Positions 4,188 to 60,548 are shown, numbered from the stretch's first letter. The stretch is DNA of 64,000 nt from Candidatus Thorarchaeota archaeon (GCA_048882325.1 JBHLRS010000013.1:7668-71667); one strand, 5' to 3'. Made by a program: numbers and translations. The notes: generated by a model from the letters alone, not told the origin.

Positions 4188-4299
4188 GTGTCACACTTCC
4201 ATTCGTTGCGGTGAGTTGACTTGGATATGAAGATTGTCATGATGAGAATCGAATACGTGTATCTCCATTCGAGAAGACAGTCATGTGAGTGATTGAGTA

Positions 4300-5116: not shown

Positions 5117-5125
5117 ACCATGAAA

Positions 5126-5884: not shown

Positions 5885-6507
5885 TTACCAACAGGGCTCC
5901 ATGCCACATTTCATTACGTTAACAACCTACCTTCACTTCTTCATAGACACCTATTAACTCATCGAGCATTATTTGTGGTTGCAGTAGTTTTTCCAATTCA
6001 TAGTTTCAATGATGCAATGACTGTTGAGATTGGAACATCTATGTTGAGGAATGGTTCATCGATGGCTACTGTTGAGTAATATCCACCAATAGGAAAGGGC
6101 CACTCATTCAGTAATTGTCTACAAGACCTGCCCTGGAATTGTTAATCAGGGTTTCCCCCAAGATTCACCCTAAATGCCATAGAAGAAAATGGAGATGTCC
6201 GCATTTTTTCCTTTCTCCGCCGGGAGGGACGCAGTACAACAGGAAAAACTCGATTGAGCATAACCTGCGGGCTTCTCCACCTGAAATGAAGGCGAGTTCT
6301 CTAAAAAGCCTTTAGGTTGTGCATAAAACTCATAAATTGACGAATTATTGAGGTTCCTTTCTATTTTTCGATTTTTCACTGCAAGAGGTGTTCTGAAGAC
6401 AGAAAAATCAAAAATTCGAGTGATTTTCAAGTCCGAGCTGAGCTGCTAGGTTCATAGACAGTAATATTAGACTGAAATGCAATGCAGAAGGTGTTGGAGG
6501 GTAATGG

Positions 6508-16534: not shown

Positions 16535-16897
16535 TCAGAGTATCTCCAGAAGTGACTCAGCCATTCGCCGCATATCAACAAAGATGAGCCCTATCTGTGC
16601 ATCCGCTTTTGCGAGGACAAGAAAGAGTGCGTTCTCGCCCACAGAAGTAAGTAAGGTGTATCCGCGATCACTTTTAACATAAATCTCCATGAGGTTGCCT
16701 CGGTCCAATTCGTTTGTGGCCTTCTCTCCCAATGACAACAATGCTGCACTAATTGCTGCAACTCGTTCTTGTTCAGCTTCTGGTAGAGCAGAAGAAATCA
16801 TGAGTCCATCAGCTGACACAAGAGCTGCACCTTCAACACCTGGTACAGTTTCGAAATCACGAATTATTTTGTTGATGCTATCAACACGACTGGACAT
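16535..16897 (-). CDS. Roadblock/LC7 (MglB-like) domain protein
   Basis: VPGVEGAALVSADGLMISSALP...AAISAALLSLGEKA...GYTLLTSVGENALFLVLAKADAQIGLIF is a textbook Roadblock/LC7 pattern. The track start is TTG 16924; ATG 16897 is preferred. Confidence 0.85.
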   Translation of the reverse strand: MSSRVDSINKIIRDFETVPGVEGAALVSADGLMISSALPEAEQERVAAISAALLSLGEKATNELDRGNLMEIYVKSDRGYTLLTSVGENALFLVLAKADAQIGLIFVDMRRMAESLLEIL

Positions 16898-17000
16898 ACT
16901 TGCACCCTCTGGCAATCCGAACAAACGCTAGTCTGTGGCCACTCTATAATAACTTATTGCATTACAGGGATTTGAGGCAATTCATGTTCATTGATATTCA

Positions 17001-20798: not shown

Positions 20799-20896
20799 AC
20801 GGGCGCACTCCGATAGAATTCAACATGATGACGAATTCTATGTAAATAGAGTTTTCCTGTGGAAAGCAATAAAGAATATGATATGGAGTGATTAGC

Positions 20897-21769
20897 TTAA
20901 TCTTCCTGAAACTCAAGCAGATCCTCATCAAACTCCTCATCATCATCATCAGATTCAGTTTCTTCAGGTAGCGCGTCAATGAGTTCATCAATCACACGAC
21001 GTAGTCTCCTACGAGTGCTCTTGGGAACATCCCACATTTTTTGTTCAGCTCGTTCCAAAACCTCTCGTGCAATATCATAGATTTCAGAGTCATAGTAGTT
21101 CTGTGCGGCTTCCACAAAGAGTTCAGCTGCTTTTTTCTGGTTCCCTGCAGTTTCTGCAATATCACCTAGGAGTGAACAAGCATCAGCGACTCCAGATTTA
21201 TCATCAATCTCTCGATAGACCTTTAGAGCCTTCTTGATTGTGGTTTCAGCAGTTGTCCAATCCTCTTTATCAACGTAGGCAGCGCCCATGTCCATAATCA
21301 CACTTGCCACACCTTGTTCATTTTCAAGTGATTTGTATGCTTTTTGGGCTTTCTTGAAGTGATCCATGGCAGTATCAAAACTGCCATGTCCTAGACTTGC
21401 CAATGCAAGACCATACAAGGCATCAGCTGCACCGCTGTCGTTGGATGACTTCTCAAACATCTTTCTTGCTGACTCAAGTGTGGAAATGGCTTCATCCCAT
21501 TGTTCAAGATTAATCTGTGCGACCCCAAGGTTGTACATTGTGTCACAAATACCAGTTTCATCCTTCAAATCCTGATAGATCTTTAATGAGTCCTCGAAGC
21601 ACTTGTGAGCCTCCTCAAATTCAGCGACTGACATGTAGATGTTTCCAACAGCATTGAACATCTTTGCAGCAGTATCATTGTCTCCAGCCTCTAGTGCGGC
21701 TTGTGCCTGTTCCAATAACTCAGCCGGGTCCATGTCTTCGATGTCATCACTCATTTGGCTCACCTGCAA
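20897..21769 (-). CDS. Tetratricopeptide-repeat protein with acidic C-terminal tail
   Basis: About seven 34-40-aa repeats of the A-x-x-Y/F-x-x-A-L pattern (AAKMFNAVGNIY, EAHKCFEDSLKIY, AMDHFKKAQKAY, KKALKVY). Tail ETESDDDDEEFDEDLLEFQED. Confidence 0.8.
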   Translation of the reverse strand: MQVSQMSDDIEDMDPAELLEQAQAALEAGDNDTAAKMFNAVGNIYMSVAEFEEAHKCFEDSLKIYQDLKDETGICDTMYNLGVAQINLEQWDEAISTLESARKMFEKSSNDSGAADALYGLALASLGHGSFDTAMDHFKKAQKAYKSLENEQGVASVIMDMGAAYVDKEDWTTAETTIKKALKVYREIDDKSGVADACSLLGDIAETAGNQKKAAELFVEAAQNYYDSEIYDIAREVLERAEQKMWDVPKSTRRRLRRVIDELIDALPEETESDDDDEEFDEDLLEFQED

Positions 21770-21876
21770 ATATCAACGGTGGCGGCCTATATCGCTTTTG
21801 ATTCTTTCTGAACGACTCAAACGATGTAGACGTGTACATAAGTAAAGCGCGGATTCAAGAAAACTAATTTGAAATA

Positions 21877-22578
21877 TTAGCGAGGCATCAGCAAAACTGG
21901 ATTCTCGAGTAGTGGGCGTACTGCATCCTTCACCATAAACTGTTCATCACCCACTTGAACCTCTAGGAGTTTTCTAAGTTCAAACCTGCGAAGATATCCG
22001 ACAGCTTGGTCTCGTTCTAAGTTAAGATCCTTCATCATCTTGCTTAGCCCTTTCTTGTCACCACTGAATTCAGCGAATTTTCCAAAGACTGAACTCCATT
22101 GCATCATTACTAGATACAGCAATGTACGAAGCATGCTGTCAACATTTTCACCAGTCTTTGCTGATACAGGGAAGACTGGGAGTCCTGCAAGAAACCGAAG
22201 GTTCTTTCTTAGTTGGTCAATTGGTCTTGACTCAGGAATATCTTGCTTGTTTGCGGCCACTACACATGGCACACCAGGTAGGAAGAATGCAATCTCCCTG
22301 AAGAATAGCTTTGCTCTAGCATCAGATTCAGGGTCAACTGAATCTACTACAAAGATTATACCATCAGCTCCTTCACTGAGAATCTTTCTCATTGTGCGAA
22401 AACGAAGTAGACCCGGGGTTCCAAACATAAAGACGTTTAACCCATCTACATTTGCTAGACCGTGATCCATAGCTATTGTAGTACCCCTACGTTCAACATT
22501 GATACATTGGCCATTGGTGATATGATGAATCATCTGGCTCTTACCAGCTTCATAGGGACCTGTAACGACTATCTTCAT
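21877..22578 (-). CDS. CvnD-like (COG2229) small GTPase with C-terminal winged-helix-like extension
   Basis: KIVVTGPYEAGKSQ (P-loop), TTIAMDHG, FMFGTPGLLRF (switch II with Leu where Gln is usual) and ANKQD (G4). The track starts at TTG 22617; ATG 22578 sits directly before beta-1. Confidence 0.8.
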   Translation of the reverse strand: MKIVVTGPYEAGKSQMIHHITNGQCINVERRGTTIAMDHGLANVDGLNVFMFGTPGLLRFRTMRKILSEGADGIIFVVDSVDPESDARAKLFFREIAFFLPGVPCVVAANKQDIPESRPIDQLRKNLRFLAGLPVFPVSAKTGENVDSMLRTLLYLVMMQWSSVFGKFAEFSGDKKGLSKMMKDLNLERDQAVGYLRRFELRKLLEVQVGDEQFMVKDAVRPLLENPVLLMPR

Positions 22579-22802
22579 TCGACCACCAAATTCTAACTCC
22601 GAATCAGTGTGTTTCAAGTATTCTGCTGCTCATTATAAGGTTTGTAGTGCTATTATCGGTCTAACAACTTCCGGCGCCACAATGCATGTTTCAGACACTA
22701 ATTTCATTGAATTGCGCAATTTGAGAGAACAGAGTAGGATGGAGACCGGCCGCTCGCAACGGCAGTCCTCAAACTCGGGCCCCAGTGGGATTTCCAATGT
22801 CA

Positions 22803-23837
22803 TCATGGGAACTCGGTCTCAATGAACTGAACATCCTGTGCAAGTTTTGCAGAGGGTGATCCATTAGATTTCACGACTTTGCCTACAGGCCAACAAGGCA
22901 GATTCTTCTCCTCAAGTGTGTTGCAGAACTCCTCGACCTTTGTGGAATCGAGGAACACAAGCATGCCACCGGCGGTTTCAGCACCAAGTCCAGTCGCGAG
23001 CTTATGACCAAAGAACTCTGCAAGCTCGAGTGTGCCACGAATAACAGGAATCCGCTCAATGACCACACTGACATCACTAAGAGAACAGACATTCCCAGCA
23101 TGACCGAGAAGGCCAAACCCTGTGACGTCCGTAGCAGCATTTACCTCAACTGCTCTCATCGTTTCAGCAACCTCCAGATTACTGAAGGTCATTAGTCTAA
23201 CAGCAACATCTTGTATTCGTTTTAGGTCACTCTCTTTGAACTTGGACAAGAGCACATCACGCTTCTCATCTTTGAGGTCTCTATATGATCTCATCGCTGG
23301 TTGAATACCCAATGGTTTAGTCAGAAGAACTGCATCACCTGGTTTGGCTCCATGTGAATAGACGACTTCACTAGGGTGTGCAGAACCCAGAGCTATTCCA
23401 CCAAACACGGGAACTGGATTCCTGATTGTCTGACCACCAGCGAGCTTCGCATCATGCCTTTCCATAAAGGTCTTCATACCTTCGAGGACACCTACAACAA
23501 TATTTTCAGGTAGTTCTATGGGATAAGCAAGAAAAGCCTGAAGCGAGAGAAGTTTCGTGACACCCATAGCAAAGATATCATTGGTCGCATTGCACGCGAC
23601 AATCTCTCCCTGTATCTGAGGGTCATCATGTATCGGTGTGAAGATATCCACATTTTCTACAATAGCCACATCATCGTTGACGATACGGACCACAGCATCG
23701 TCCCCGATTTCCTCGGTTACGCATTCACCTAACGGAAGAAGACCAGCGGTCTGTAGAAGACGAGTGAGATCATCCTGGTTGACCTTGCAGCTTCAGCCAT
23801 GAGAAGTTACCATTGCAGTCAACCGCACTTCATGCAC
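22803..23837 (-). CDS. selD: Selenide, water dikinase (selenophosphate synthetase) with in-frame UGA = selenocysteine
   Basis: The track ORF (22803-23693) starts inside the GDDAVV motif. The same frame continues upstream through TGA (23793-23795): (GTG)HEVRLTAMVTSHG-U-SCKVNQDDLTRLLQTAGLLPLGECVTEEIGDDAVVRIV. This aligns with the SelD N-terminus (E. coli IRLTQYSHGAGCGCKI), with U at the Cys17/Sec position. AGGAGG lies 12 nt upstream of GTG 23837. Confidence 0.85.
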
Positions 23838-23989
23838 CTGGTGACTCAACCTCCTGCATCCTTTAAGGCAAGTTAGCCCAACTCACAACTGGAGGTAGCC
23901 AGTAATAAGATTCTGGGTCAAGCTCACTTCACAAGCCTTATAGCCAGTGTCACGAAGCGATGCGCTATTCTAAGAGAGAGTGATTCGAG

Positions 23990-27301: not shown

Positions 27302-29056
27302 CTAGTCTTCTTTCGTTTCTTCCTCAGCTGAGTCAAGCAGTTTATCCAGTTCAGCTAAGGTTTCTCCGTTGAGTGGGAGATATGAATCGTGTTCATCCTC
27401 CTCGTTGACGTCGGTAATTCCAAACCCACCCACAGAGCGATCTAAAGGACCTAGGATAGTCTCTAATTCCTCAAGTGATTCTGCGTCTATCTCTTCGGTT
27501 TCTATGGATTCGTCTGCAACTGGCTTTGTTTCGTCACTCCCGATTGCTTGCAGTGCTGTGTCAATCTCCTCATCGGATGCTTGTTCAATTTCTGCTGCAA
27601 TAATATCATCAAAATCATCAGTTTCGAGGGCTTCAAAGATTATGTCCTTAGCCATTTTAATGGCATCTGTATTCTCTTCGACAACAAGTTCTGGACCAGC
27701 ATCAACAGTTGTTTCTGAAACATCAATCTCGGGCCCCACTGGTTCCGGTTCTGGTATTGGTTCAGGTTCCGAATCAACATCGATTTCAACGGCTATCTCA
27801 TCTCCAATGCCGACCTCATCCACTGAAACCTCAATCTCTTCTTCAACAATGGGTTCTTCGACTTCAGGTGCTTCTTCCTCAACCGCTTCGAGTTCCTCCT
27901 CTTCCTCTTCTTCCTCTACTTCTTCGATTTCTTCTTCTATAATTTCATACTCTTCAAGGTCTTCAATGATTCTACCTTCTTCATCTATATAGACTTCCTC
28001 ATATTCCTCCTCTTCTTCAACTTCAGAAACGGCAGTGGCTGCAGCTGCCTCTTCAGCAGCTAGCTCTTCCATTGCATCAACTTCAGCAATAGCTTCCTCA
28101 GTAGCAGTATCTGTGAATTTTAGGAGCTCAGCAGCGGGAAGATCAGGTAATGCAACTCCTACATATTGAGCAGCCGCGTTCATGAGAATGCGTAGCATCT
28201 CATCTCTACGGTCTTTATCAATAGCGACCATGGGGTAGGTTGGGATTCCAAGAATTTTCTGGACAACTTCTGGTTTCATTGCATTTGGCTTGTCTTGCTT
28301 GTTTGCCATGGCAAAAACAGGAACCTTTGGTGCATCCCTCTTAATCAGCTTCAGAATGTCCTTACTTATAATGACATTTCTCAGCGTTGAATCGCAAACC
28401 AGAAAGATGACATCAGCTCCATGAAAGTAGAATCGCCAGAGCGTTCTGAATCGTTCCTGACCTGCAAAGTCCCACAGAACTAAGGAATAGTTGCCAAACC
28501 GGATGTTTTCGACAGTTTCAAGGTTTAATGCAATTGTTGGTACATACTGAAGTGGTGGCGTATCACCTAGAAGCAGGTGAAGTGTAGTTGTCTTTCCTAC
28601 ACCTCCCTCTCCAACGAGAGCAATCTTGAGCCTAGTTGTCACCGAGGGCTCGATGAGAAATCTATAGTTCTTGATTGCACCTTCAATGCCATCCTTTTTG
28701 AACTTCCTTCGAAGAGCCTTCAAAGCAATATCGATCTTTTCGTAGGTGTTTCCTTCGTCTTCACCTTTATCAGTCACGAAGACAAGAGTTGAGTCTTCAA
28801 TCCAGTCCTTTCCAAGGAATTTGTGGTCACCTATAATCAGGGGTAACTCCTGTACTTGTCCGTGACCAGTTCTGAGTTCCTCTCTTGTTGAGATGAACTC
28901 CATCAGTGCTTCGTTGCTCACTTCTACTGGCCAGTACTGTGTCGATGCGATTATCTGTTGTGTGGAAATGCGGACAAGGAAAGTATTGTGGATCACTTCA
29001 GCATCACCGGATTCATTCACTTCAAGAGGGTAGTACACTAATGCGCTTTTTATCAC
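27302..29056 (-). CDS. Multidomain Arf/Rab-like small GTPase: about 140-aa N-terminal alpha/beta domain + GTPase + about 270-aa acidic disordered tail
   Basis: KIALVGEGGVGKTT, WDFAGQERF, ANKQDKPNA. The C-terminal half is dominated by E/D (EEEEEYEEVYIDEEG..., EEVEEEEEEEELEAVEEE). Confidence 0.85.
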   Translation of the reverse strand: MIKSALVYYPLEVNESGDAEVIHNTFLVRISTQQIIASTQYWPVEVSNEALMEFISTREELRTGHGQVQELPLIIGDHKFLGKDWIEDSTLVFVTDKGEDEGNTYEKIDIALKALRRKFKKDGIEGAIKNYRFLIEPSVTTRLKIALVGEGGVGKTTTLHLLLGDTPPLQYVPTIALNLETVENIRFGNYSLVLWDFAGQERFRTLWRFYFHGADVIFLVCDSTLRNVIISKDILKLIKRDAPKVPVFAMANKQDKPNAMKPEVVQKILGIPTYPMVAIDKDRRDEMLRILMNAAAQYVGVALPDLPAAELLKFTDTATEEAIAEVDAMEELAAEEAAAATAVSEVEEEEEYEEVYIDEEGRIIEDLEEYEIIEEEIEEVEEEEEEEELEAVEEEAPEVEEPIVEEEIEVSVDEVGIGDEIAVEIDVDSEPEPIPEPEPVGPEIDVSETTVDAGPELVVEENTDAIKMAKDIIFEALETDDFDDIIAAEIEQASDEEIDTALQAIGSDETKPVADESIETEEIDAESLEELETILGPLDRSVGGFGITDVNEEDEHDSYLPLNGETLAELDKLLDSAEEETKED

Positions 29057-37367: not shown

Positions 37368-37910
37368 TTAAGAAATTGCTAGCGAATTCTTCGCAAGCAT
37401 GTTGAATGCCTCTTCGACGTTCTGACCATTCAGTGCGCTTGTTTCTAGATATCCGGTGAGATTATGCTCTCGGGTAAACTGTTCACCCATCTCACGAGTA
37501 ATCACCCTATGTTCGATGAGGTCCACTTTGTTTGCTAGAAGAATAATCGGAATCCTTTCGCCTAAAGCATCTTCAGTTTCCTTAATCCACTTTGGTAGTT
37601 CTAACCATGTACTCTTTCGGGTTGTATCGTACACAAGTAAAGCCCCTTTAGATCCTCGATAATAACTACCACGAATGAAATCGAATCTCTGCTGTCCAGC
37701 AAGGTCCCAAACCAAAAGTTTCACAACCACATTACGACCGTTCGCAGCTTCTACTTCTACCGTCTTGACTGCAAATTGTGAACCAATGGTCACGATATAC
37801 TCTTCAGAGAACTTGTGTGTGAGAAATCTGTTGACTAGGGCAGTCTTTCCACTACCGCCAGCGCCAATCATGACGACCTTACGCATGTAGTCAAAGCCAC
37901 CGCTACTCAA
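37368..37910 (-). CDS. Rab/Ras-like small GTPase
   Basis: KVVMIGAGGSGKT (G1), TIGSQF (G2), WDLAGQQRF (G3), ANKVDL (G4), ETSALNG (G5). No C-terminal prenylation motif. Confidence 0.9.
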   Translation of the reverse strand: MSSGGFDYMRKVVMIGAGGSGKTALVNRFLTHKFSEEYIVTIGSQFAVKTVEVEAANGRNVVVKLLVWDLAGQQRFDFIRGSYYRGSKGALLVYDTTRKSTWLELPKWIKETEDALGERIPIILLANKVDLIEHRVITREMGEQFTREHNLTGYLETSALNGQNVEEAFNMLAKNSLAIS

Positions 37911-50400: not shown

Positions 50401-52254
50401 TCAAGAGGAGAATTCTGAGACTATCAGGTCAGTTCTTGTGGCAAAGAATATGTATGTCGGAATGGATGCCAAGAGAATCACTCCGATCATTGTCACCATG
50501 ACTGCGACAATTGACAATGGAAGATATGCCAATGATGGAACAGCGGCCTCAGGTATTAACATATAGATACTAAGAAGTGTGCTGACAATGAGTGCAGGAA
50601 TTCCAGCTCTCAGTCCAACTTCTAGGCCTTCTGCAATCATCACCTTAGCAATGAAAGATGGTTTTGCTCCTACTGACCGCATGATTATGTAATCTCGAAG
50701 ACGACCGAACACTGAAACTAGTAGATAGTTCATTAGACTCAGGAACGCGCTAAGTAGAGTAACAAGAGCAAGTGGATTCAAGAGTGCCCAGATGGCATCA
50801 ATTGTTTCCAGATTTCCTTCTAGTACATCCTGTTGTCTGAAGATACCAAATCCATAACTCTCAGCAAGAATCTCAATTTCACTAATGAGTGAGTCATCAT
50901 AATCTTCAAGCTGAACCAAGACCAAGTTGGTCCCTGAAACCCCAAATGAATTCTGCAGCTCTGAAAGCTCCATCAGGGCCATCATACCACCATTTAGAAT
51001 GTCAAAAGCCTGTGCTTTGATTTCGAGTGTATTTCCTTGTACCTCAAGGTTTTGTATGAGAGGATCTTCGAAGAGGTCACTAGCCATCTTTCCCCCAATC
51101 CATACCTGTTCTGTGTTCTCAGGAATACGACCTTCATAATACCAATCAGAGATTGATGAATCCCAATTGATACCAACTAGTACCGCATTTGATGTTCGGT
51201 CTTCTCCAACAATCTCATACTGCTCCAGCTCTTCATTCCAGACAGTAACTCGTTTCGCTTCAATTTCAGAATAGACCACAAGACGTTGTTCAACAGCGTA
51301 CACACCTAAAATATCTCCCAGGTCTGTTGTTAATGCACTGGGTATCATATCTGAACTGCTAAGATAGTTGAAACTGTTGTCAAGAGGAGAACCATAGAGC
51401 GAGTATGAGTCGTAGTAGGAATCAAGAAGGTCAGGATTCCCAACTGCGACAATGTTTTCTCCCATTGAACGTGTCACGTATGAACTTGAGGTTGTGTGAA
51501 CCACTCCACCACCAATCCAGAGAATAGAAGCAATCGTAAAACTCAGGAAAAGAGACAGTACCGTCCGCCTTGTACCTTTCAATCTTCTTCCTGTTCCTTT
51601 TGTGGCAATACGGAAAGAAAGGCCAAAACTATCAAGAAATCCTGAAACACGGACCTTTGTCCCGACATCGGGGTTCAGAGCGAGGGAGGGAGACTCTTGA
51701 ACTGTGTCATAGATTGGCTTTTGAGCTGAAAAGTACCCGGCGATAACAAGGACCACGGCTAAAACTGACAATTGAATAATTGGAAAGGAATTGGTCAGTT
51801 GAATATTGGGAATGAAACCACTTAGCCAAATTATTCCAGCTATGTACAGAATTGTACCGAACGACAGTCCAAGTACAATACTTGCCAACAGCATTATCAC
51901 TGATTGAGCCATAAAGAAATCAAAGATCGTGTCTAGGAGTGTTCCTATTGATTTCATCAAACCAATATCGCGACGCCTAGTCACCATCTCCAACGAGATT
52001 GTCGTGGACACCACTGCCGCACCCAGAACAAAAACAAGGAGTAGGATTGTCCAAACAAAGGTCGAGAAGAAAGTTCCGAAAGATGAAGACAGAGCACTTG
52101 CTACTGAGAAAGTAGATACGTCAAGTAGTACATTCCCAAATAGAAACACAAACGTGGTCGCCGTGACTACACTCGTTAATGAGATGAGAGTGAGAGTTGT
52201 CCGAAATGGACGTCGTTTCAGATCTCGTGAGGCAAAAATCTGATGTTCAGACAT
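50401..52254 (-). CDS. MacB/FtsX-type ABC permease (two 4-TM FtsX domains flanking a large extracytoplasmic domain)
   Basis: 617 aa with FtsX cores (MKSIGTLLDTIFDFFMAQS; MRSVGAKPSFIAKVMIAEG). 8-nt overlap with the upstream ATPase gene. Confidence 0.85.
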   Translation of the reverse strand: MSEHQIFASRDLKRRPFRTTLTLISLTSVVTATTFVFLFGNVLLDVSTFSVASALSSSFGTFFSTFVWTILLLVFVLGAAVVSTTISLEMVTRRRDIGLMKSIGTLLDTIFDFFMAQSVIMLLASIVLGLSFGTILYIAGIIWLSGFIPNIQLTNSFPIIQLSVLAVVLVIAGYFSAQKPIYDTVQESPSLALNPDVGTKVRVSGFLDSFGLSFRIATKGTGRRLKGTRRTVLSLFLSFTIASILWIGGGVVHTTSSSYVTRSMGENIVAVGNPDLLDSYYDSYSLYGSPLDNSFNYLSSSDMIPSALTTDLGDILGVYAVEQRLVVYSEIEAKRVTVWNEELEQYEIVGEDRTSNAVLVGINWDSSISDWYYEGRIPENTEQVWIGGKMASDLFEDPLIQNLEVQGNTLEIKAQAFDILNGGMMALMELSELQNSFGVSGTNLVLVQLEDYDDSLISEIEILAESYGFGIFRQQDVLEGNLETIDAIWALLNPLALVTLLSAFLSLMNYLLVSVFGRLRDYIIMRSVGAKPSFIAKVMIAEGLEVGLRAGIPALIVSTLLSIYMLIPEAAVPSLAYLPLSIVAVMVTMIGVILLASIPTYIFFATRTDLIVSEFSS

Positions 52255-53062
52255 TACGGGTTAGCTCTCCTAGCTCCATCTTATATTGGTGGACATTCGA
52301 TTGATTGATTATTCCCTCGTCATGAGTCATAACAATCACAGCCTTTCCTTGTTTGTTCAAATCACGAAGCAGGTCTCGAATCATTTGTCCACTTTCACCA
52401 TCAAGATTGGCTGTGGGCTCATCTGCGAGAATGATAGGAGGATCATTAGCCATAGCGCGTGCTATCGCGATTCGTTGTTGTTCGCCAGAACTGAGCTGCC
52501 ACGGAAGATGGTCAGCACGATCCTCCAACTCAACTCTCTCGAGAAGCTTCATTGCCTCTTCTCGTAACAGTGAATGACTCCGCTCATAAAGCTGCATAGG
52601 AAACATCACATTCTCAACAGCAGTTAAGGTGGAAACTAGATTATAGCTCTGAAAGATGAAGCCTGTGTTGTTGAGTCTGAAGGATGCACGAAATGATTCA
52701 TCATAGTCATTGATGGGAACATCCATGACAAACACCCGACCATTTGTTGGGAGATCTATTGCTCCGATGATATTCAGGAGAGTTGTCTTTCCAGATCCTG
52801 ACCTTCCCGAGATTACGACAAAATCACCGGCATCGATAATAAGATTGACATCACGCACAGCCCCAATTGTCGTTTTCCCCAATGAGAAGGCTCTCGAAAC
52901 ATTCTGAAGGTCCACTGCGTGACGGACTTCTTCAAGATCTTCTGCATCCAAATCGTCCCGAGTATAGTCGACCGCATCTAGATAATCGTCATCAGCCATT
53001 ACTTGCCACCTTGATAGGTGGCGAATGACTCTCAACCCAAGATAAGCGTAAGGGTTGAACAA
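52247..53062 (-). CDS. ABC transporter ATP-binding protein (MacB-type) with acidic N-terminal extension
   Basis: GRSGSGKTT, LSSGEQQRIAIARA, ILADEPTANLD and MTHD. The track start is TTG 53062; ATG 52999 (MADDDYLD) is possible. Confidence 0.9.
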   Translation of the reverse strand: MFNPYAYLGLRVIRHLSRWQVMADDDYLDAVDYTRDDLDAEDLEEVRHAVDLQNVSRAFSLGKTTIGAVRDVNLIIDAGDFVVISGRSGSGKTTLLNIIGAIDLPTNGRVFVMDVPINDYDESFRASFRLNNTGFIFQSYNLVSTLTAVENVMFPMQLYERSHSLLREEAMKLLERVELEDRADHLPWQLSSGEQQRIAIARAMANDPPIILADEPTANLDGESGQMIRDLLRDLNKQGKAVIVMTHDEGIINQSNVHQYKMELGELTRNV

Positions 53063-53878
53063 CTAATGTACCAAAATGGCCTGAACATCAAGCGCTGAAC
53101 GGGCCCAGTCTGTGAGTAGTACAGGTTTCTCTCTACCAAACACCTTCACTGATCGAAGAATATCCGCATCAAGAAGACTACTGATATAGTAGGAGATTAG
53201 GCTCTTATCCACATCTAGTGTTCTACTTATCACGGCTTGAGTTGTCTGACCATTAGATGCACATTCACTGAGGATTGATCCCACAGTGGGATTACGCGCC
53301 ATGGCTGTAAGAAGCATCACCTTTTCATCAGAGGAGTAGTCAGGTGTGAATAAGTGTCGAACATTGCCATTCCTGAGTGATACAACCTGTCCATCCTCTT
53401 CGAGCGCACGAAGATGGTACTGGAGTGCGCCCATGGCACATCCAATAATTCGATGAAGTTCGCGAAGGTGAATACCAGGATTAGCTGATACCTCTCCGAG
53501 GATTCGATCACGAAGTTTCTGAAGTCGACGGTCTTCTCTCCTGTCAATTGAGACAGTTCCAATCGCAAGAACGAGAAATCCTAAATCAAGTGCAGTGAAA
53601 AGCGAATTAGACCAGGCTATGTTAGTGCCTCCAGAGTTCCAAGTAAATACCTTAGCATCAATAGAGAGGTTTTCAATAATAGTAGATTTCCCAATACAGA
53701 ACGACAGTGCCTCAAATTGTGCGAGGTTATCATTTGCACTCAGTGTGGGAGACAAGTCCTGAGCCAATGGCTCTACACCACCAAAACCCGCTCCAGATAG
53801 AACTACACCTAGAACGCCCCATGAGAGGAGGGCAAGTGAGAATCCAACTAGGATATGTTTGGTGAACCGTCTATTCAT
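53063..53878 (-). CDS. Membrane-anchored double winged-helix transcriptional regulator (COG3398-like)
   Basis: Two TM segments (ILVGFSLALLSWGVLGVVL; ALDLGFLVLAIGTV), then ILGEVSANPGIHLRELHRIIGCAMGALQYHLRALEEDGQVV and a second wHTH (GQTTQAVISRTLDVDKSLISYYISSLLDADIL). Confidence 0.75.
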   Translation of the reverse strand: MNRRFTKHILVGFSLALLSWGVLGVVLSGAGFGGVEPLAQDLSPTLSANDNLAQFEALSFCIGKSTIIENLSIDAKVFTWNSGGTNIAWSNSLFTALDLGFLVLAIGTVSIDRREDRRLQKLRDRILGEVSANPGIHLRELHRIIGCAMGALQYHLRALEEDGQVVSLRNGNVRHLFTPDYSSDEKVMLLTAMARNPTVGSILSECASNGQTTQAVISRTLDVDKSLISYYISSLLDADILRSVKVFGREKPVLLTDWARSALDVQAILVH

Positions 53879-53950: not shown

Positions 53951-54505
53951 CTACGTGGCTCCACGTGCTGGATAGGTCATTGTAATTTTGAATGTGCAGC
54001 TCTCTTCACCAGCAGACATACAAGTGTCTTCTGTGACGATCAACTTCTCATACTCAATTCTATTGAAGTCGGTTAAGTACTCAAGAACTGCCTCTACGAA
54101 TCCCTTCAAGAAGAAACAAGATGGTTCTTCAGCTTCATAACCCGAAGCATATGGATTGTCACCAATTTCTATAATCGCTTCTTCATCCAACCAAAGTTTG
54201 TAGAGTTTAGCAATCCGAACATCACCAAATGGAACAATCAAAGTTTCGAGAGCCATTTTGATGAACTCGATGATTCCCTTAAAATCACCAGGAGGTTTTT
54301 GCTTCCCAATCTTGAAGTATTCTCTTTGAGCTTCAAGTCCTGCAAGACGTCCAGCTGAGTAATAGAGGTCCTTTACTCGATCTGGGAACATGACTGCAAT
54401 CCTGCTCCCGAGTTTGTTCCAGGTCTTCGCGAAGAATGCAACCATTAAGTCACGTTCCTTGAGTCGACCTTGCCACCAAGGAATCACCTTATCTTGATCT
54501 GACAT
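53951..54505 (-). CDS. V4R-like domain protein
   Basis: C-terminal EEPSCFFLKGFVEAVLEYL...VTEDTCMSAGEESCTFKI fits the V4R pattern C-x-f-x-x-G-f...E-x-x-C-x-x-x-G-x-x-x-C-x-F. Confidence 0.65.
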   Translation of the reverse strand: MSDQDKVIPWWQGRLKERDLMVAFFAKTWNKLGSRIAVMFPDRVKDLYYSAGRLAGLEAQREYFKIGKQKPPGDFKGIIEFIKMALETLIVPFGDVRIAKLYKLWLDEEAIIEIGDNPYASGYEAEEPSCFFLKGFVEAVLEYLTDFNRIEYEKLIVTEDTCMSAGEESCTFKITMTYPARGAT

Positions 54506-54573
54506 TTCTAGGCCTCGTTGTCACTGACAGATGATGAAATGATGTTTAATTGCTTTATGTGTGTGTGATACAT

Positions 54574-55047
54574 CTATACTAGACGGACATTCCATACGCA
54601 TGCATCTGCACCGGTGGCTTGGCTCATCTCTTGGAAGACCTTTGCATCAACACCTTTGAACTCCAGAATAGACTGGAGTATTCCACTAAAGACCTCACAG
54701 TACCCAAAACCCCGCATTCCTTCAAGGTTTACTTCTTGGCACCACACGCACTTGTCATCTGTAATCCTTACTGATCCGCGAGCTGTTTTCATATCAACAT
54801 CTTTGGGTTTCTTATCGAATAAGGTGCGATATACAATTTCAATCAGCTTGGCAACATCCTCGCGGGTTGTGACATTATCCTTTGTTTTTTCAACAATCTC
54901 TGTGTTAAGGTAGATTTGCTGACCAATCTCGCATCCAAGGTCTCGTAGTTTCTGATTTGCTTCTTCGATGTTTTCTGTTTCAGACAAAACCTTCTCGACA
55001 TAATAGGAGTATAAGCTAATTAACAAAGGATTTTCAATCTTGGGCAT
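54574..55047 (-). CDS. V4R (4-vinyl reductase / Bet3-TRAPP-related) domain protein
   Basis: RITDDKCVWCQEVNLEGMRGFGYCEVFSGILQSILEFKGVDAKVFQEMSQATGADACVWNVRL is the canonical V4R layout. Confidence 0.8.
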   Translation of the reverse strand: MPKIENPLLISLYSYYVEKVLSETENIEEANQKLRDLGCEIGQQIYLNTEIVEKTKDNVTTREDVAKLIEIVYRTLFDKKPKDVDMKTARGSVRITDDKCVWCQEVNLEGMRGFGYCEVFSGILQSILEFKGVDAKVFQEMSQATGADACVWNVRLV

Positions 55048-55070
55048 TATATGTACACCTTCTCTGAAAT

Positions 55071-56075
55071 CTAGAGGGTCTTTCCGATTAATTTCAGACC
55101 GTGTTTTCTGTATTTGGCAATTGTTTGTACAACCCTAGGTAGTGGAACACTCAATTCTTCGGCAATCTGTTCAGTAGTTCGAGTGCCATCACACAACCTA
55201 ATGATGTTTTGATCATTATTCGCGACTTTCTTCATATCACCCTCATAATGTGGACATTTAACATATCGTCCCATTGCACTAGTCGCTGATGCTGAAACTT
55301 CCTCACCCTCTGTAAGTTGCGGAACCGTGATTATACCTCGTGAAGCTCCCCACTTCAGTAAATCTATTACCCTATTGTTTGGCTGAAACATTGAGTCTGC
55401 AATTTTCTCTACACTGTTGGCACCATCAACCAGCATTAGAACATCAAAGCCAAAGTTTCGATAGAGTTTCTTCATCTCTGTGTACAGCTTTGAGTCCAGA
55501 GAGAGTGCGTTAGAATACCTTGGACCTCTCTCAGGGACAGTAGTAGGCTGAACATTGAATGACTCTGGTGGTGGAAGATCCTCAACTGGAGTGGGAGATT
55601 CTTCCACAACTGGTGGTGTGGCTACTTCAGGTTCAGGTCGTGGAGTTGTATCAGGTGCTTCAGTGGATTCGATAGAAGCTGCATTGATTGCGATGCTCTC
55701 TAGAACCTGCAGATTGGATTCTACTGATTCCTCGAACTCCTCTGGAGGAGGTGGTAGTTCAATTCCTTCTAACAATCTGAGAACGTTCTTTGTCTTAGCA
55801 ATAGCCAGTCCAAGCTGGAGCTCTGGTACGTATAGAACAGTCAAAATCCAGTTGTCATCAACGGGGGAGAGAACAACAAGCCCACGATCAGTATCAATGG
55901 TCATAAGTCGTAAATCACTCTTATAGAGGGCTATGCTATCCTTCACTCGTGGGAATAGTTCATCCGGAAATGCAAAGCTGACAAAAGGTCTACCAACCTT
56001 TGTCATCAATGAATAACCCAATACTTGGTCATCGAATCTCAACTTGGATAAAGCGCGTTCCAAATCTTTGGACAT
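55071..56075 (-). CDS. Roadblock/LC7-like domain + Pro-rich linker + two WH-like repeats (cassette copy A)
   Basis: MSKDLERALSKLRFDDQVLGYSLMTKVGRPFVSFAFPDE...GLVVLSPVDDNWILTVLYVPELQLGLAIAKTK (Roadblock pattern), then LPPPPEE...PTPVEDLPPPE, then VLMLVDGANSVEKIADSM and IIRLCDGTRTTEQIAEEL repeats. The start was set by alignment with paralog 57939-58916; the track start is 56183. Confidence 0.75.
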   Translation of the reverse strand: MSKDLERALSKLRFDDQVLGYSLMTKVGRPFVSFAFPDELFPRVKDSIALYKSDLRLMTIDTDRGLVVLSPVDDNWILTVLYVPELQLGLAIAKTKNVLRLLEGIELPPPPEEFEESVESNLQVLESIAINAASIESTEAPDTTPRPEPEVATPPVVEESPTPVEDLPPPESFNVQPTTVPERGPRYSNALSLDSKLYTEMKKLYRNFGFDVLMLVDGANSVEKIADSMFQPNNRVIDLLKWGASRGIITVPQLTEGEEVSASATSAMGRYVKCPHYEGDMKKVANNDQNIIRLCDGTRTTEQIAEELSVPLPRVVQTIAKYRKHGLKLIGKTL

Positions 56076-56222
56076 AATGTATACCTCACGGACACTGGTC
56101 TGAATAATAATGGCTGTCCCTGCTATTCTCTCGAAGTTCGTCTGAAAAGGATTGTGGTGGTGAAGCAAGTTGAGACTCGTCAAAAACGGTTAAGAGGGGT
56201 TCGAGTCTGCCGATTAACTACA

Positions 56223-56789
56223 ATGAAGAACTTTGTTGGCGGTCTACTAGCGGTTTTCATAGGTTCTATGGTCATAGTAATGTTCCTGGGACTTACGCAA
56301 CCGGTTTATCCAGAACCGTTCAACATTTTCTGGTTCCTTTTTGCAGGGAGTTATGCTATACAGACAACGCTCCTCAACCCACTCACGCTAATCAGTGTTG
56401 GGCTCTATATTCTCACATGGATTGTCATGGGATTGGTTATCGCACCATTTTCAAAACCTGGATGGAATACAGTCAGATCTGCACTTTGGGTTGGTCTAAT
56501 TCATGCAGTCCTGGCACTAATGTCAACCCTCTTCACAGAACCTGGATTTTGGGAGAGCGCCAGTAGAAACTATCAATTACTCACCAAGTTTACAACTTCG
56601 CTTCTACTAAGCATTCTTTCGTTACCAGCAGCAATACCAGCAGCAATAATCGTTGAAAGAGTTGGTCGTGAGGCTGAACCACCAATTCCATCCAAGATTG
56701 AAACAGTTTGTGAATGTGGAGCAGTTTTCAAATCGAAACCAATGATGTGTTCGGAATGTGGAAGGATATTGAATAAACCCACAGAATAG
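56223..56789 (+). CDS. Hypothetical membrane protein with C-terminal zinc ribbon
   Basis: About 5 TM segments, then CECGAVFKSKPMMCSECG. The track start 56154 overlaps the divergent gene; ATG 56223 (MKNFVGGLLAVF) is preferred. Confidence 0.6.
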   Translation: MKNFVGGLLAVFIGSMVIVMFLGLTQPVYPEPFNIFWFLFAGSYAIQTTLLNPLTLISVGLYILTWIVMGLVIAPFSKPGWNTVRSALWVGLIHAVLALMSTLFTEPGFWESASRNYQLLTKFTTSLLLSILSLPAAIPAAIIVERVGREAEPPIPSKIETVCECGAVFKSKPMMCSECGRILNKPTE

Positions 56790-57317
56790 CTAGCGATCTC
56801 TTGTTATGGCTCCACCAAGGAGGCCACCTATAGCACAAGCAATAGCAGGATATATTGTTCCTTCAAGTGCAGCTTGCATGATGATGAGTGAGCCTTGTTG
56901 GAAGATCCCACCAATTCCAGCAAAGGAAGAGGATATCATGAAGAAAAGTAACCATGTAAGAAATGCACCAATAACAGCTGAGAAGACAGCAGAAAGAATT
57001 CCAGGAAGTATCTCTTTAGTCACTAATCCAGCAATGAGACCACCTGTGCCCCATGCTAACCACATCAGGACCGTACCGCCTGGTGCACCGTAACCAACAA
57101 GAGAACCAAGACTTGTTGATCCAAGTATCGCTGGGGCAGGGAACAGGATTGTACCTGTTACAGCTAGACGTTTCTCGAGCTCTCTACTAGCGAGAAAGTC
57201 ATCTACAATAGTTGATGCAATGAGATCATTTGGCATAAAGGATCCGAACATCAGAACGATGAATGCAAGTGCGAATGCTGTTATCAAACCTAGGAGCGTG
57301 CCTAAACCTTGACCCAA
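56790..57317 (-). CDS. Hypothetical Gly-rich polytopic membrane protein
   Basis: 175 aa with 5-6 TM segments and repeated small-residue motifs (GGLLGG, GTGGLIAG). Its stop abuts the stop of the convergent ORF at 56789. Confidence 0.6.
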   Translation of the reverse strand: MGQGLGTLLGLITAFALAFIVLMFGSFMPNDLIASTIVDDFLASRELEKRLAVTGTILFPAPAILGSTSLGSLVGYGAPGGTVLMWLAWGTGGLIAGLVTKEILPGILSAVFSAVIGAFLTWLLFFMISSSFAGIGGIFQQGSLIIMQAALEGTIYPAIACAIGGLLGGAITRDR

Positions 57318-57414
57318 TTGAGGTCCTCCGTTTGTGTTGGTTCTATACCCCTATTTCTAGTTATTAGGTTTTATACCTATGCCGGATGGTTATCTTGAGA
57401 GTTGAAGCATCAGG

Positions 57415-57918
57415 TCACAATAGTGATAGTGTCCAGGTGCACGCCTCATCACCCAACGCCCTACAGGACTCCTGAAAGCTCTCAGCTTGGAATCCTCTGA
57501 GCTTCATGACAGCGTCAAACACACCACTCACTATGACACAGTATTGCAATCCAGGCATGTCAGTGATATGCACTCCAGCGCATATTGGACAATCCGCATC
57601 AGAGAACTTGATTGTTCGTTTGTCAGGACTTACTGAAATATCTGTGAATGTTTGCCCTGAATTCACCTTGTAAGCAAGTTGAAGAGTATTGGCGAACTCA
57701 TGGAACTGACCAGCGTGATCTCGAATTCGATCAGCGTAGTCCATCAGCAGGGTTTCACCGACTCTAAAGCCAATGTCCTTCATCTTACGGTTAATCTCAT
57801 CAACTGTTTCACTGGTGCTCATTAGCAGGTTCATAAGTTCCCGATAACTAGCTTGAAACAGAACTTTAGAGACCTTGTCCGTCATGAAATTCCAAGCAAT
57901 CTTACCTTTTACACCCAT
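57415..57918 (-). CDS. V4R (Bet3-TRAPP-related) domain protein (cassette copy B)
   Basis: KFSDADCPICAGVHITDMPGLQYCVIVSGVFDAVMKLRGFQAESFQESCRALGDEACTWTLSL. ATG 57918 has GGAGGT 12 nt upstream and lies 20 nt after the upstream stop; the track start is 58005. Confidence 0.8.
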   Translation of the reverse strand: MGVKGKIAWNFMTDKVSKVLFQASYRELMNLLMSTSETVDEINRKMKDIGFRVGETLLMDYADRIRDHAGQFHEFANTLQLAYKVNSGQTFTDISVSPDKRTIKFSDADCPICAGVHITDMPGLQYCVIVSGVFDAVMKLRGFQAESFQESCRALGDEACTWTLSLL

Positions 57919-57938
57919 TGTTACTTCGACCTCCAGTT

Positions 57939-58916
57939 TCAAAATCTTGATGTCTTGTCTGTACGAATGAATTTGACTTCCTTCCCACGATATGGGACAA
58001 CACATTGCAACGCTTCGAAATAGGGTATTCCAAGTTCAGTAGCAATTTCTTGCAATGTCCTCTTTCCATCACATAGCTCAAGCACGGGACGATGTTTCTT
58101 CTTCATTTTGTCAATCTTTCCTTCGAATAATGGTAACTCGATAATTTCCTTCTGGCTTAGCTCTTGTTCCTCTGGACACTCGATTCGAAGAACTGAATTA
58201 GATACACACCATTTCACGATTTCGATGATCTTTTCAACAGGTCTAGCTAATTGCTCCGCAATCTTATAGACTGTCATTTTTTCATCGACTATCAGAAGTA
58301 CATCAATGCCAACATTGGCAAATACCCTCTTTATAGCAGTGTTAAGCTGCGTTTCCAAGGTCACAGTAGGTTTGTAGTTCTCACTTCTGTGTACTACACA
58401 TCCATGTCGAACTTCAATTTCCTCAGGTGGCACCACTGGAACATCAGAAGGTTTTATTTCAGATGGTTCAGATTCAAGAGCGACTTCTGGAGCTAAACCT
58501 TGAGGTGTATTTTGAGTTGCTGATGCGACCTCAGTGACTTCTTCTTCAAGTGAAATCAGTTGTTCTTCCTCCTCAACACCTAGACCGGCAGGGGGTGGAG
58601 GAAGGTCAACTTGCACAAGAAGATCAACAACAGCTTTGGTTCGTGATAGAGCCCCACCAAGTTGGAAGTCCGGTTCGAATAGTACAGCAAGAACCCATTT
58701 AGGATTGACTCTTGCCAGAATAACTATTCCTTCACTTGTCATTGTGTTAACGAGTTTTAGATCACTCCCGTGTATTCGGAGAGTTCCTTTGATTTGTGGA
58801 AGAACCTCATCTGGTAAAGAGAACGAGAGGAAAGGATGTCCATCACTGGTGATTAGTGCATACCCACTAACTGCTTCATCAAACTTCAGTTTAGTAAGTA
58901 CACGCTCCAGTTGCAA
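57939..58916 (-). CDS. Roadblock/LC7-like domain + Pro-rich linker + two WH-like repeats (cassette copy B)
   Basis: QLERVLTKLKFDEAVSGYALITSDGHPFLSFSLPDE...GIVILARVNPKWVLAVLFEPDFQLGGALSRTK, then LPPPPAG, then VLLIVDEKMTVYKIAEQL and VLELCDGKRTLQEIATEL repeats. Paralog of 55071-56075. Confidence 0.8.
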   Translation of the reverse strand: MQLERVLTKLKFDEAVSGYALITSDGHPFLSFSLPDEVLPQIKGTLRIHGSDLKLVNTMTSEGIVILARVNPKWVLAVLFEPDFQLGGALSRTKAVVDLLVQVDLPPPPAGLGVEEEEQLISLEEEVTEVASATQNTPQGLAPEVALESEPSEIKPSDVPVVPPEEIEVRHGCVVHRSENYKPTVTLETQLNTAIKRVFANVGIDVLLIVDEKMTVYKIAEQLARPVEKIIEIVKWCVSNSVLRIECPEEQELSQKEIIELPLFEGKIDKMKKKHRPVLELCDGKRTLQEIATELGIPYFEALQCVVPYRGKEVKFIRTDKTSRF

Positions 58917-60098: not shown

Positions 60099-60548
60099 CT
60101 ACACCTTTCGAAGAGCTGCTTTGACCATAGCAGTGATACGATCTTCTTCAATACCGGTCTTTTTAGCGACTTTTGTAATATCGCAATATGCTAGGTCTTC
60201 AAATGTCTGAATGCCAGCTTTCACTAACAATGGAACATCGGTCTTTTTGACAGCGCGAAGTGAACCCAAGTCATCTTTGGGAGCGGCCCCTTTCACTTGA
60301 GCTGGTGCAGCTTCTTCAGCCAAAGAAGCGACAATTTCCTCAAGGTCCTTGATGTATTGCTTGAGGGCATCTACATTCTCAGGATGGACTGTCTTTCGTC
60401 GAAGGTCAACAATCAGTCCCATCTGCCGAGCTTCATTTATGGTGAGACCAGCTTGAGCAGTTTCTTCACTACTAAAACCACGTCCTCTCTTAGGGCGACC
60501 ATCTCTTGGAGATCTAACTGTTGGCTCAGCGATAATATCAAAGCTCAT
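60099..60548 (-). CDS. rpl13e: Ribosomal protein eL13 with C-terminal helix-hairpin-helix extension
   Basis: GRPKRGRGFSSEETAQAGLTINEARQMGLIVDLRRKTVHPENVDALKQYI is the eL13 core. The C-terminal 60 aa (LLVKAGIQTFEDLAYCDITKVAKKTGIEEDRITAMVKAA) looks HhH-like. Confidence 0.75.
   Translation of the reverse strand: MSFDIIAEPTVRSPRDGRPKRGRGFSSEETAQAGLTINEARQMGLIVDLRRKTVHPENVDALKQYIKDLEEIVASLAEEAAPAQVKGAAPKDDLGSLRAVKKTDVPLLVKAGIQTFEDLAYCDITKVAKKTGIEEDRITAMVKAALRKV

Follow-up and report, generated by a model that had tools for sequence, protein, structure and literature searches.

A duplicated Roadblock–winged-helix and TRAPPC3-like gene pair in Thorarchaeia, a candidate GTPase-regulating module

Among the GTPase regulators that govern membrane traffic and nutrient signalling in eukaryotes, TRAPP and GATOR1 hold a central place; Roadblock/longin platforms, such as MglB and Ragulator, are established GTPase regulators as well. 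To our knowledge, the prokaryotic roots of TRAPP and GATOR1 are known only as isolated domain homologues. Here we analyse a gene pair that occurs twice on the minus strand, at positions 53951-58916, of a 64,000-nucleotide stretch from a Candidatus Thorarchaeota archaeon (GCA_048882325.1 JBHLRS010000013.1:7668-71667), hereafter called the window. The first gene of each pair encodes a predicted fusion of a Roadblock domain with winged helix-turn-helix (wHTH) modules, which we call RBf, and the second a relative of the TRAPP subunit Bet3/TRAPPC3, designated V4R-A or V4R-B according to the copy.

The closest described protein is Thor-TRAPPC3, which crystallised as a homodimer resembling TRAPPC3/C6, with a four-Cys Zn site and internal cavities (Tran et al., 2024, PMC10933270). 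Its authors speculated on ligand binding or transport, observed no membrane targeting of Thor-TRAPPC3 GFP fusions in HeLa cells, described a Heimdall protein in which longin and TRAPPC3 domains are fused, and found genome layout to be no help in matching Asgard GTPases to their regulators (PMC10933270). They treated Thor-TRAPPC3 alone, and the upstream RBf gene and the duplicated operon are unmentioned (PMC10933270). An NPRL2-like longin/C-terminal-domain family has been reported ‘in most Thor MAGs’ (metagenome-assembled genomes), without any mention of TRAPP or V4R (Liu et al., bioRxiv 10.1101/2020.10.19.343400); this is probably the RBf family. In the actinobacterial mfp/conservon system, the Roadblock protein MfpD is a GTPase-activating protein (GAP; PMC9769811), and the DUF742 wHTH protein MfpC has been shown experimentally to be an exchange factor for guanine nucleotides (GEF; PMC11343762).

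The locus is thus made up of components of known kinds: a crystal structure exists for Thor-TRAPPC3, and earlier work had noted Asgard proteins of the Roadblock, V4R and NPRL2-like kinds. Our literature search found no description of an operon joining a Roadblock/longin-wHTH protein to a TRAPPC3-like protein, of its ancient duplication, or of a third V4R subunit. The initial annotation of the window had proposed an undescribed module; the pairing does appear new, whereas V4R-A corresponds to crystallised Thor-TRAPPC3 and an NPRL2-like Thorarchaeial family was already on record from Liu et al.

The gene pair, its products and its duplication

ORF (open reading frame) calling recovered all five minus-strand ORFs earlier described between 53951 and 58916. 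In copy A, RBf-A (55071-56075; 334 aa) is followed after a spacer of 23 nt by V4R-A (54574-55047; 157 aa) and then by the third gene of the cassette, V4R-3 (53951-54505; 184 aa). In copy B, RBf-B (57939-58916; 325 aa, with a TTG start) is followed after 20 nt by V4R-B (57415-57918; 167 aa), whose start at MGVKGK is backed by its orthologues. The spacers therefore have the 20-23 nt originally reported for them, and each contains a Shine–Dalgarno-like AAGGTG or GGAGGT. Short spacers with such sites are typical of co-transcription, and each cassette is most likely a co-transcribed gene pair.

V4R-A matched crystallised Thor-TRAPPC3 from SMTZ1-45 (PDB 7YH3) and from AB25 (PDB 7YH2) over its full length (E ~1e-91) and is ~87% identical to the copy at the SMTZ1-45 locus; judged by sequence, it is the orthologue of these proteins. 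For V4R-B, the match to 7YH3 had an E of 1e-20, and matches to eukaryotic TRAPPC3 had E = 5e-6 to 1e-5. Both exceeded the Pfam TRAPP (PF04051) cut-off of 27 bits (V4R-A, 43.1; V4R-B, 28.3), and both fell below the Pfam V4R (PF02830) threshold. Family models, PDB matches and the crystal structure of an orthologue thus bear out, for V4R-A and V4R-B, the affinity to Bet3 that had been suggested. Four Zn-cysteines are invariant in both families across 59-72 species (C110, C113, C127 and C160 in V4R-B). The full Cys pattern claimed for the V4R proteins accordingly holds for these two families, while the third gene, V4R-3, retains three Cys that are invariant across its orthologues.

V4R-3 is indeed the more divergent of the V4R-like genes, resembling V4R-A and V4R-B in the C-terminal V4R core only (BLASTP E = 0.27; hhalign E = 2e-5 and 3e-6). 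It scored 36.3 bits with Pfam V4R (cut-off 31), had no Pfam TRAPP match, and the annotation of its orthologues reads ‘V4R / predicted hydrocarbon binding protein’. Its AlphaFold2 (AF2) model (predicted TM-score, pTM, 0.77) has four helices and four strands. In Foldseek this model matched the phenol-sensor domains of MopR, PoxR and DmpR and the Bet3-family chains of TRAPP about equally, the latter with TM-scores of 0.6-0.68. On the strength of the model, we take V4R-3 to be an ordinary stand-alone V4R protein with the full V4R/Bet3 fold. It is also the best-conserved member of the trio, with 68-96% identity among Thorarchaeial loci.

Searches of Pfam and NCBIfam with RBf returned nothing above threshold, nor did sequence searches of the PDB with RBf-A and with the A1 profile of the family. 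Robl_LC7 (PF03259) was absent from RBf-A and RBf-B at E<=1; five of 14 orthologues matched it, the best at E = 0.12, and the A1 profile reached 7F8M in the PDB at E = 1.1. The N-terminal Roadblock domain of the initial annotation is therefore undetectable by Pfam, and the case for it comes from structure prediction and Foldseek. In the AF2 model of RBf-A (predicted local distance difference test score, pLDDT, 71.5 overall and ~80 for residues 1-102), residues 1-102 have the topology alpha-beta-beta-alpha-beta-beta-beta-alpha, residues 113-166 are disordered, and two helical/winged-helix modules follow. Foldseek placed the N-terminal domain in the Roadblock fold with a probability of 1.0 (TMt 0.6-0.72). 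Matches comprised 7F8M (Thor-RB), 9JUE, 7YH1, 3LEQ, 1VEU and 5Y3A, and included MK-D1 Roadblocks, LAMTOR2/3, the Streptomyces CvnB-type structures 3LEQ/3KYE and dynein LC7. We conclude that the N-terminal domain of RBf is, as modelled, a Roadblock fold.

RBf-A consists of the Roadblock domain (residues 1-106), an LPPPP motif, an acidic disordered linker (107-180), wHTH-1 (~181-252) and wHTH-2 (~271-334). RBf-B has the same plan, with the Roadblock domain at ~1-104, LPPPP and an acidic disordered linker, then wHTH-1 at ~173-245 and wHTH-2 at ~259-325. The PPPP-containing linker and the two WH-like repeats originally noted are thus present, the repeats in the form L-x-x-D-G-x-x-T/S-x-x-x-IA. The C-terminus of RBf-B gave sub-threshold Pfam matches to HTH_47, Sigma70_r4 and DUF742, the last at 16.4 bits against a cut-off of 27 (E = 0.0085). 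Across 72 species the Roadblock domain of RBf-A is nearly invariant (VGRPFVSF, LQLGLAIAKTKN, LPPPP), the linker varies freely, and the recognition-helix regions of the wHTH modules are the least conserved part of the protein. RBf has an isoelectric point (pI) of ~5 and a linker net charge of -15; wHTH-2 is mildly basic, with a mean net charge of +4 across orthologues and a pI of 9.3.

The LPPPP motif directly after the Roadblock domain is invariant in RBf-A (residues 106-110, ~55746-55760), in RBf-B and in a divergent lineage described below (L070). It may serve as a polyproline ligand site, with Asgard profilin and SH3-like domains as examples of what could bind there.

The two copies are diverged paralogues. 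RBf-A and RBf-B are 36% identical (E = 4e-70) and V4R-A and V4R-B 23% identical (E = 3e-26), and profiles of the V4R-A and V4R-B orthologues align over their full length at E = 3e-34 (hhalign). By these scores, paralogy of both RBf and V4R-A/V4R-B lies far above chance. In neighbour-joining trees, RBf-A, RBf-B, V4R-A and V4R-B formed four monophyletic clades, which makes the duplication of the pair older than the radiation of the class Thorarchaeia and agrees with the old duplication first proposed for the window. That both members were duplicated and kept together counts for a functional coupling of RBf with its TRAPPC3-like partner.

Recurrence of the pair and relatives of RBf

RBf-A orthologues all came from Thorarchaeota/Thorarchaeia MAGs. 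A scan of species-representative genomes gave 75 loci, with collinear gene order in ~70 Thorarchaeial species; RBf-B orthologues were found at 55 loci. Every locus that was long enough contained a collinear block in the order L13e, pfkB, RBf-B, V4R-B, memM, memP, RBf-A, V4R-A, V4R-3, membrane-anchored wHTH, ATP-binding cassette (ABC) ATPase and permease, memM and memP being membrane protein genes. Collinearity of Thorarchaeial genomes extends well beyond these 12 genes.

Three independent cases outside this collinear set carry the weight for a functional pairing. In the divergent lineage L070, in which RBf identity is 45%, only RBf, the TRAPP-like gene and V4R-3 are kept of the 12-gene block. 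In one locus from Candidatus Ranarchaeia (L080), a protein with a longin domain and three wHTH modules (P0144) is followed after 2 nt by a TRAPP-family protein (P0170), which scored 33.7 bits with Pfam TRAPP and is without the Zn-cysteines; a search with P0170 returned only itself. In a second (L085), a protein with a longin domain and two wHTH modules (P0163) is followed after 18 nt by an orthologue of V4R-B (43% identity, E = 6e-52) in which the Cys are retained. The Ranarchaeia pairs thus recur although the N-terminal domain there is of the longin type. The pairing is accordingly conserved in related genomes, in ~70 Thorarchaeial species, L070 and the two Ranarchaeia loci.

An exhaustive RBf profile search of 1.84 billion representatives yielded only 49 relatives. 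Those other than the Thorarchaeial forms combine an N-terminal longin/Roadblock-like domain with one to three ‘CDG-x-x-T/S-x-x-EIA’ wHTH modules. Among 32 representatives of these relatives, Pfam HTH_47 was matched by 21, TrmB by 17, HTH_NPRL3 by eight (best E = 1.9e-9) and DUF742 by five (E down to 2e-5). Several distant relatives were left out of the comparison of neighbours, their contigs being too short to judge.

Two relatives have longin-like neighbours of their own. Downstream of P0150 lies a gene for a 212-aa longin-like protein (L083, 2523-3161), and upstream of P0163 one for a 207-aa paralogue with a longin domain and one wHTH (L085, 2845-3468). These arrangements hint at hetero-oligomeric longin/Roadblock platforms in other Asgard lineages.

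A candidate GTPase-regulating platform and its rivals

The explanation that we tentatively favour, while giving it somewhat less than an even chance, is a hetero-oligomer of a Roadblock platform and a Bet3-like protein that regulates a small GTPase, with the cavities of the V4R fold as ligand input. RBf would dimerise through its Roadblock domain and combine with the TRAPPC3-like dimer to form the platform. The paralogous pairs A and B would each be specialised, and assembly A would also hold V4R-3 as a third Bet3/V4R-fold subunit. A small Ras-superfamily GTPase would be the client that this platform binds and regulates, whether as GAP, GEF or scaffold, and the hydrophobic cavities would couple this regulation to a small hydrophobic ligand, a lipid or the redox state. 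The Heimdall longin-TRAPPC3 fusion (PMC10933270) provides a Rosetta-stone argument for a physical link between RBf and the TRAPPC3-like protein, and a nearly invariant Roadblock domain beside variable wHTH recognition helices counts for a platform that acts on a GTPase.

The architecture of RBf points in the same direction. Its domain order is that of NPRL2, with an N-terminal platform followed by C-terminal winged-helix modules, and each of the seven best Foldseek matches of RBf-A over the full length was an NPRL2/Npr2 chain from GATOR1/SEACIT (E = 4e-7 to 4e-4 over 361-404 columns), with chain identities confirmed by sequence. The link of RBf to HTH_NPRL3 is transitive: the A1 profile finds P0150 and other relatives (E = 1e-7 to 1e-4), and these pass or come close to the cut-off of the HTH_NPRL3 model (P0150, 32.3 bits against 27.2). 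Membership of RBf in the NPRL2 family is not claimed, since its hhalign comparison with human NPRL2 was not significant. The GP motif/Arg finger signature defined for GAP longins (PMC12290439) was rejected as evidence for GAP catalysis: the beta1-beta2 hairpin of RBf carries the generic Roadblock G-x-P, not GP (the residues are GRP in copy A and GHP in copy B, and GKI in L070), and R29 is conserved neither in copy B nor in L070.

A candidate client lies outside the cassette. At 16535-22617 (minus strand), Pfam and a match to PDB 7F8M delineate a four-gene module encoding a Robl_LC7 protein (16535-16924; 129 aa), a 1265-aa surface protein, a TPR/SNAP-like protein of 290 aa and a small GTPase of 246 aa that carries a WH-like extension at its C-terminus. 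The Robl_LC7 protein is orthologous to Thor-RB, whose crystal structure 7F8M it matches at E = 4.5e-61, and Thor-RB thereby gains an operon context with a GTPase. In L070 the same MglA/MglB-like module (318-6618) is collinear and directly abuts the RBf cassette, and its GTPase is 56% identical to that encoded at 21877-22617 in the window. The 1265-aa surface protein has a signal peptide/transmembrane segment and a weak Peptidase_C25 match.

The initial annotation had drawn on four small GTPases in the same segment. They exist in the window (8687-9493, 21877-22617, 27302-29056 and 37368-37910), but at 16-45 kb from the cassette, and one of them sits in its own MglA/MglB-like operon; as GTPases are abundant in Asgard genomes, their co-location is a weak argument, and we rejected it as evidence.

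Two further genes in this part of the window deserve mention. The GTPase at 37368-37910 (minus strand) is Rab-like (Pfam Ras, 160 bits) and a paralogue of crystallised Thor-Rab (7EZB, E = 5e-43); its matches to eukaryotic Rab11 and Rab1 are almost as good. At 22803-23873 (minus strand), the gene for SelD (selenide, water dikinase) has a TGA codon, in frame, at precisely the position of the active site (...RLTAMVTSHG-U-SCKVNQ...), owing to which a mechanical ORF list shows SelD only after the TGA. The protein probably contains selenocysteine, which would imply a Sec-decoding machinery in this Thorarchaeon.

A number of observations weigh against the GTPase-regulating hetero-oligomer. Concerning the GTPase, no GTPase gene adjoins the cassette in Thorarchaeia, where the nearest is ~16 kb and the L070-type gene ~32 kb away, and none adjoins it in the Ranarchaeia loci. 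The GTPase beside the cassette in L070 is a single case, and the GTPase of the client module already has a canonical Roadblock partner of its own in the Thor-RB orthologue. V4R-A and V4R-B stop at the last beta-strand, the TRAPPC3 alignment ending at ~157 of 178-200 target residues with 9 query residues left, and thus do not have the Bet3 C-terminal tail that is used in TRAPP GEF catalysis at the Rab nucleotide pocket. The resemblance of RBf-A to NPRL2 is one of domain order and domain folds only (whole-chain TM-score ~0.2); hhalign of the A1 profile against human NPRL2 gave a non-significant E of 0.44, aligning wHTH-2 with NPRL2 172-218; and neither Pfam NPR2 nor HTH_NPRL3 matched RBf-A, RBf-B or their orthologues. 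The N-terminal helix of the RBf-A model (H3-13) indicates a Roadblock and not a longin topology, and the wHTH modules of RBf and its relatives match many generic DNA-binding wHTH families. With respect to the pairing itself, synteny within Thorarchaeia is weak functional evidence on its own because these genomes are broadly collinear past the block, and five further distant Roadblock/longin-wHTH relatives with usable contigs had no TRAPP neighbour. In two related Thorarchaeial MAGs, V4R-B is cut down to a C-terminal remnant of 22-28 aa right after an intact RBf-B (L027, 3131-3214; L030, 4744-4809), and in the complete genome CP070658 (L045) this position has neither gene of the B pair, nor pfkB and L13e. 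It seems, therefore, that some lineages can dispense with copy B or that it is mobile in them.

The last group of observations would be expected if RBf and the TRAPPC3-like protein were not coupled at all, their arrangement reflecting inherited gene order and a segmental duplication, with the proteins acting independently and the TRAPPC3-like protein as a homodimer, the form in which Thor-TRAPPC3 crystallises without a partner. We consider this very improbable. It does not account for the survival of only the pair or trio in L070, for the recurrence of the pair in Ranarchaeia, at two different loci whose spacers measure 2 and 18 nt, despite a longin-type N-terminal domain, for the co-duplication and co-retention of both genes, or for the natural longin-TRAPPC3 fusion in Heimdall.

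The DNA around copy A bears on two other explanations. The genes memM (56790-57317, minus strand), which encodes a Gly-rich membrane protein between the cassettes and whose membership of them is uncertain, and memP (56154-56789, plus strand), which is divergent from RBf-A and encodes a membrane protein with a C-terminal zinc ribbon, keep their position between the cassettes in all Thorarchaeial loci. Neither had a Pfam match, and both are absent from the L070 and Ranarchaeia loci. Conservation of memP in Thorarchaeial loci begins at MKNFVGG and at the CxCG..CxxCG ribbon, so that its true start is probably the ATG at ~56223. In the divergent intergenic region between RBf-A and memP lies an 18-19-nt element on the minus strand (56141-56159), ACC[AG]CAAT[CG]CTTTTCAGA, that is kept in 36/36 aligned Thorarchaeial species while the surrounding DNA is unconserved. 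It is a probable promoter core or operator, as judged by this conservation. It is not palindromic, has no second copy in the window and is absent upstream of RBf-B; these last two properties rule it out as a shared operator of both cassettes.

Two flanking features are recorded here. At 50401-53878 (minus strand), the gene for a membrane-anchored protein with two wHTH domains (HTH_HVO_0163_N and MarR-like) lies immediately upstream of those for a MacB-type ABC ATPase and an FtsX-like permease, an order kept in all Thorarchaeial loci; the protein may be a membrane-tethered regulator of the ABC transporter. At 60099-60548 (minus strand) lies the gene for ribosomal protein L13e, with a C-terminal helix-hairpin-helix/DUF4332-like extension.

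The conserved element, together with a Thorarchaeial block of membrane proteins, membrane-anchored wHTH protein and ABC transporter, is consistent with a ligand- or redox-responsive transcription regulator split over two polypeptides. The wHTH modules of RBf would bind DNA, its Roadblock domain would serve only for dimerisation, the V4R partners would sense small molecules or thiol/Zn redox, and the regulator would act on the neighbouring membrane protein genes and on the MacB-type ABC transporter. A ligand-responsive wHTH regulator was the alternative offered by the initial annotation, and it is viable, given the precedent of MsvR and the mildly basic wHTH-2. The wHTH modules of RBf relatives match DNA-binding families of the TrmB, MarR, HTH_24 and HTH_5 types, the V4R proteins hold invariant Cys clusters, and the best Foldseek matches of V4R-3 include the phenol sensors. 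A weak match to MsvR, in its V4R domain, was also found for V4R-B and V4R-3. MsvR binds DNA in a redox-sensitive way that depends on Cys (PMC3729527), and its model covers only the V4R part of V4R-B and V4R-3, at E = 1e-3 to 4e-3 and far below its cut-off of 220 bits. Nevertheless, least-conserved recognition helices with a nearly invariant Roadblock domain are the opposite of what is typical of a transcription factor, RBf is acidic overall and in its linker, and comparable wHTHs act otherwise, those of NPRL2 in protein-protein contacts and that of MfpC in a GEF. The membrane and ABC genes are not kept beside the pair in L070 or Ranarchaeia, and the 18-nt element is non-palindromic, unique in the window and absent upstream of RBf-B. 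Overall, we regard the split regulator as unlikely, but as a serious rival.

The same conserved neighbours, two membrane proteins and the ABC ATPase with its FtsX-type permease, would equally suit a module that binds hydrophobic ligands or lipids and hands them over, and is not centred on a GTPase. The three V4R/Bet3-fold proteins would hold lipids, acyl chains or hydrocarbons in their cavities, and RBf would be an adaptor that tethers the V4R proteins, through LPPPP and the linker, to other proteins, to the membrane neighbours or to the MacB-type exporter. Palmitate is bound by mouse and Naegleria Bet3, V4R-3 orthologues carry the annotation of hydrocarbon binding, and the cavities of the Thor-TRAPPC3 crystal led its authors to propose ligand binding or transport (PMC10933270). 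We judge such a module to be quite unlikely. Its membrane and ABC neighbours are not conserved outside Thorarchaeia, whose genomes are collinear in any case; neither the nearly invariant Roadblock domain nor the NPRL/DUF742-like wHTHs have a part to play in it; and the GFP fusions of Thor-TRAPPC3 were not targeted to membranes in HeLa cells.

Implications and comparison with known systems

The locus bears on the origin of TRAPP-type and GATOR-type regulators. Crystallised Thor-TRAPPC3 gains a concrete, cloneable candidate partner in RBf, encoded 23 nt upstream, as well as a third V4R subunit and a candidate GTPase module. With the pair duplicated, fixed across Thorarchaeia and present in Ranarchaeia, the question of an Asgard TRAPP-like complex becomes directly testable. 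The more far-reaching proposal, that the pair resembles a common ancestral form of the TRAPP platform with Bet3 and of the longin-wHTH GAP subunits of GATOR1, is in our view doubtful. Under it, the pair would be a ligand-gated GEF/GAP for an Asgard small GTPase, and eukaryotic TRAPP-type and GATOR-type regulators would descend from one operon module already present in two specialised paralogous copies before the split of Thorarchaeia and Ranarchaeia. Were the split regulator to prove true instead, the locus would represent a new, two-polypeptide type of V4R-sensor regulator, which is less far-reaching but still undescribed.

The closest likeness is to Thor-TRAPPC3/Bet3 itself: V4R-A is its orthologue, with the same four Zn-cysteines and the same 4-helix/4-strand fold, and V4R-B a full-length paralogue. 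Unlike eukaryotic Bet3, V4R-A and V4R-B are expected, by analogy with Thor-TRAPPC3, to bind Zn, and they are without the tail used in Rab1 nucleotide exchange. Unlike TRAPP, the locus encodes no longin subunits of the Bet5, Trs23 or Trs20 type alongside them; the operon partner is the Roadblock-wHTH fusion.

NPRL2/NPRL3 (Npr2/Npr3) share with RBf a platform of the Roadblock/longin superfamily, a flexible segment and C-terminal winged helices in the same order, but RBf departs from them in its Roadblock topology with an N-terminal helix, and profile comparison (E = 0.44) and Pfam NPR2 fail to join them. In contrast to GATOR1, no DEPDC5-like gene was seen in the flanks of the cassette, and the Bet3-like operon partner is without counterpart in GATOR1.

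In the conservon/mfp system (CvnA-D; MfpB-E), a Roadblock protein (MfpD/CvnB, the GAP) and a DUF742 wHTH protein (MfpC/CvnC, the GEF) act on one small GTPase, and by analogy RBf looks like the equivalent of a fusion of these two modules. It differs in that its domains lie in one chain, in that its DUF742 matches are below the Pfam threshold, and in that the Bet3-like partner has no conservon counterpart; a histidine-kinase-like CvnA is absent, and no kinase or GTPase gene as in a conservon operon occurs in the cassette or its 7-kb flanks at the 75 loci, a GTPase being adjacent only in L070.

MsvR and the XylR/DmpR/PoxR/MopR regulators likewise combine a V4R sensor fold with a wHTH or other output, the V4R domain of MsvR has Cys/Zn chemistry, and the structural resemblance of V4R-3 to the MopR/PoxR sensor domains equals that to Bet3. 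Here, however, sensor and wHTH are on separate polypeptides, the wHTH protein includes a dominant and highly conserved Roadblock domain, neither an AAA+ nor a sigma-54 module is present, and V4R-A and V4R-B score in Pfam as TRAPP, not V4R.

Finally, the modelled Roadblock fold of RBf is near those of MglB, LAMTOR2/3 and Thor-RB (TMt 0.6-0.72), which relates it to MglA/MglB and Ragulator-Rag, and in L070 the cassette adjoins an MglA/MglB-like module. RBf is set apart from MglB and Ragulator by its additional wHTHs, by its LPPPP motif and acidic linker, and by a sequence too diverged for Pfam Robl_LC7, Thor-RB itself being encoded by a separate gene.

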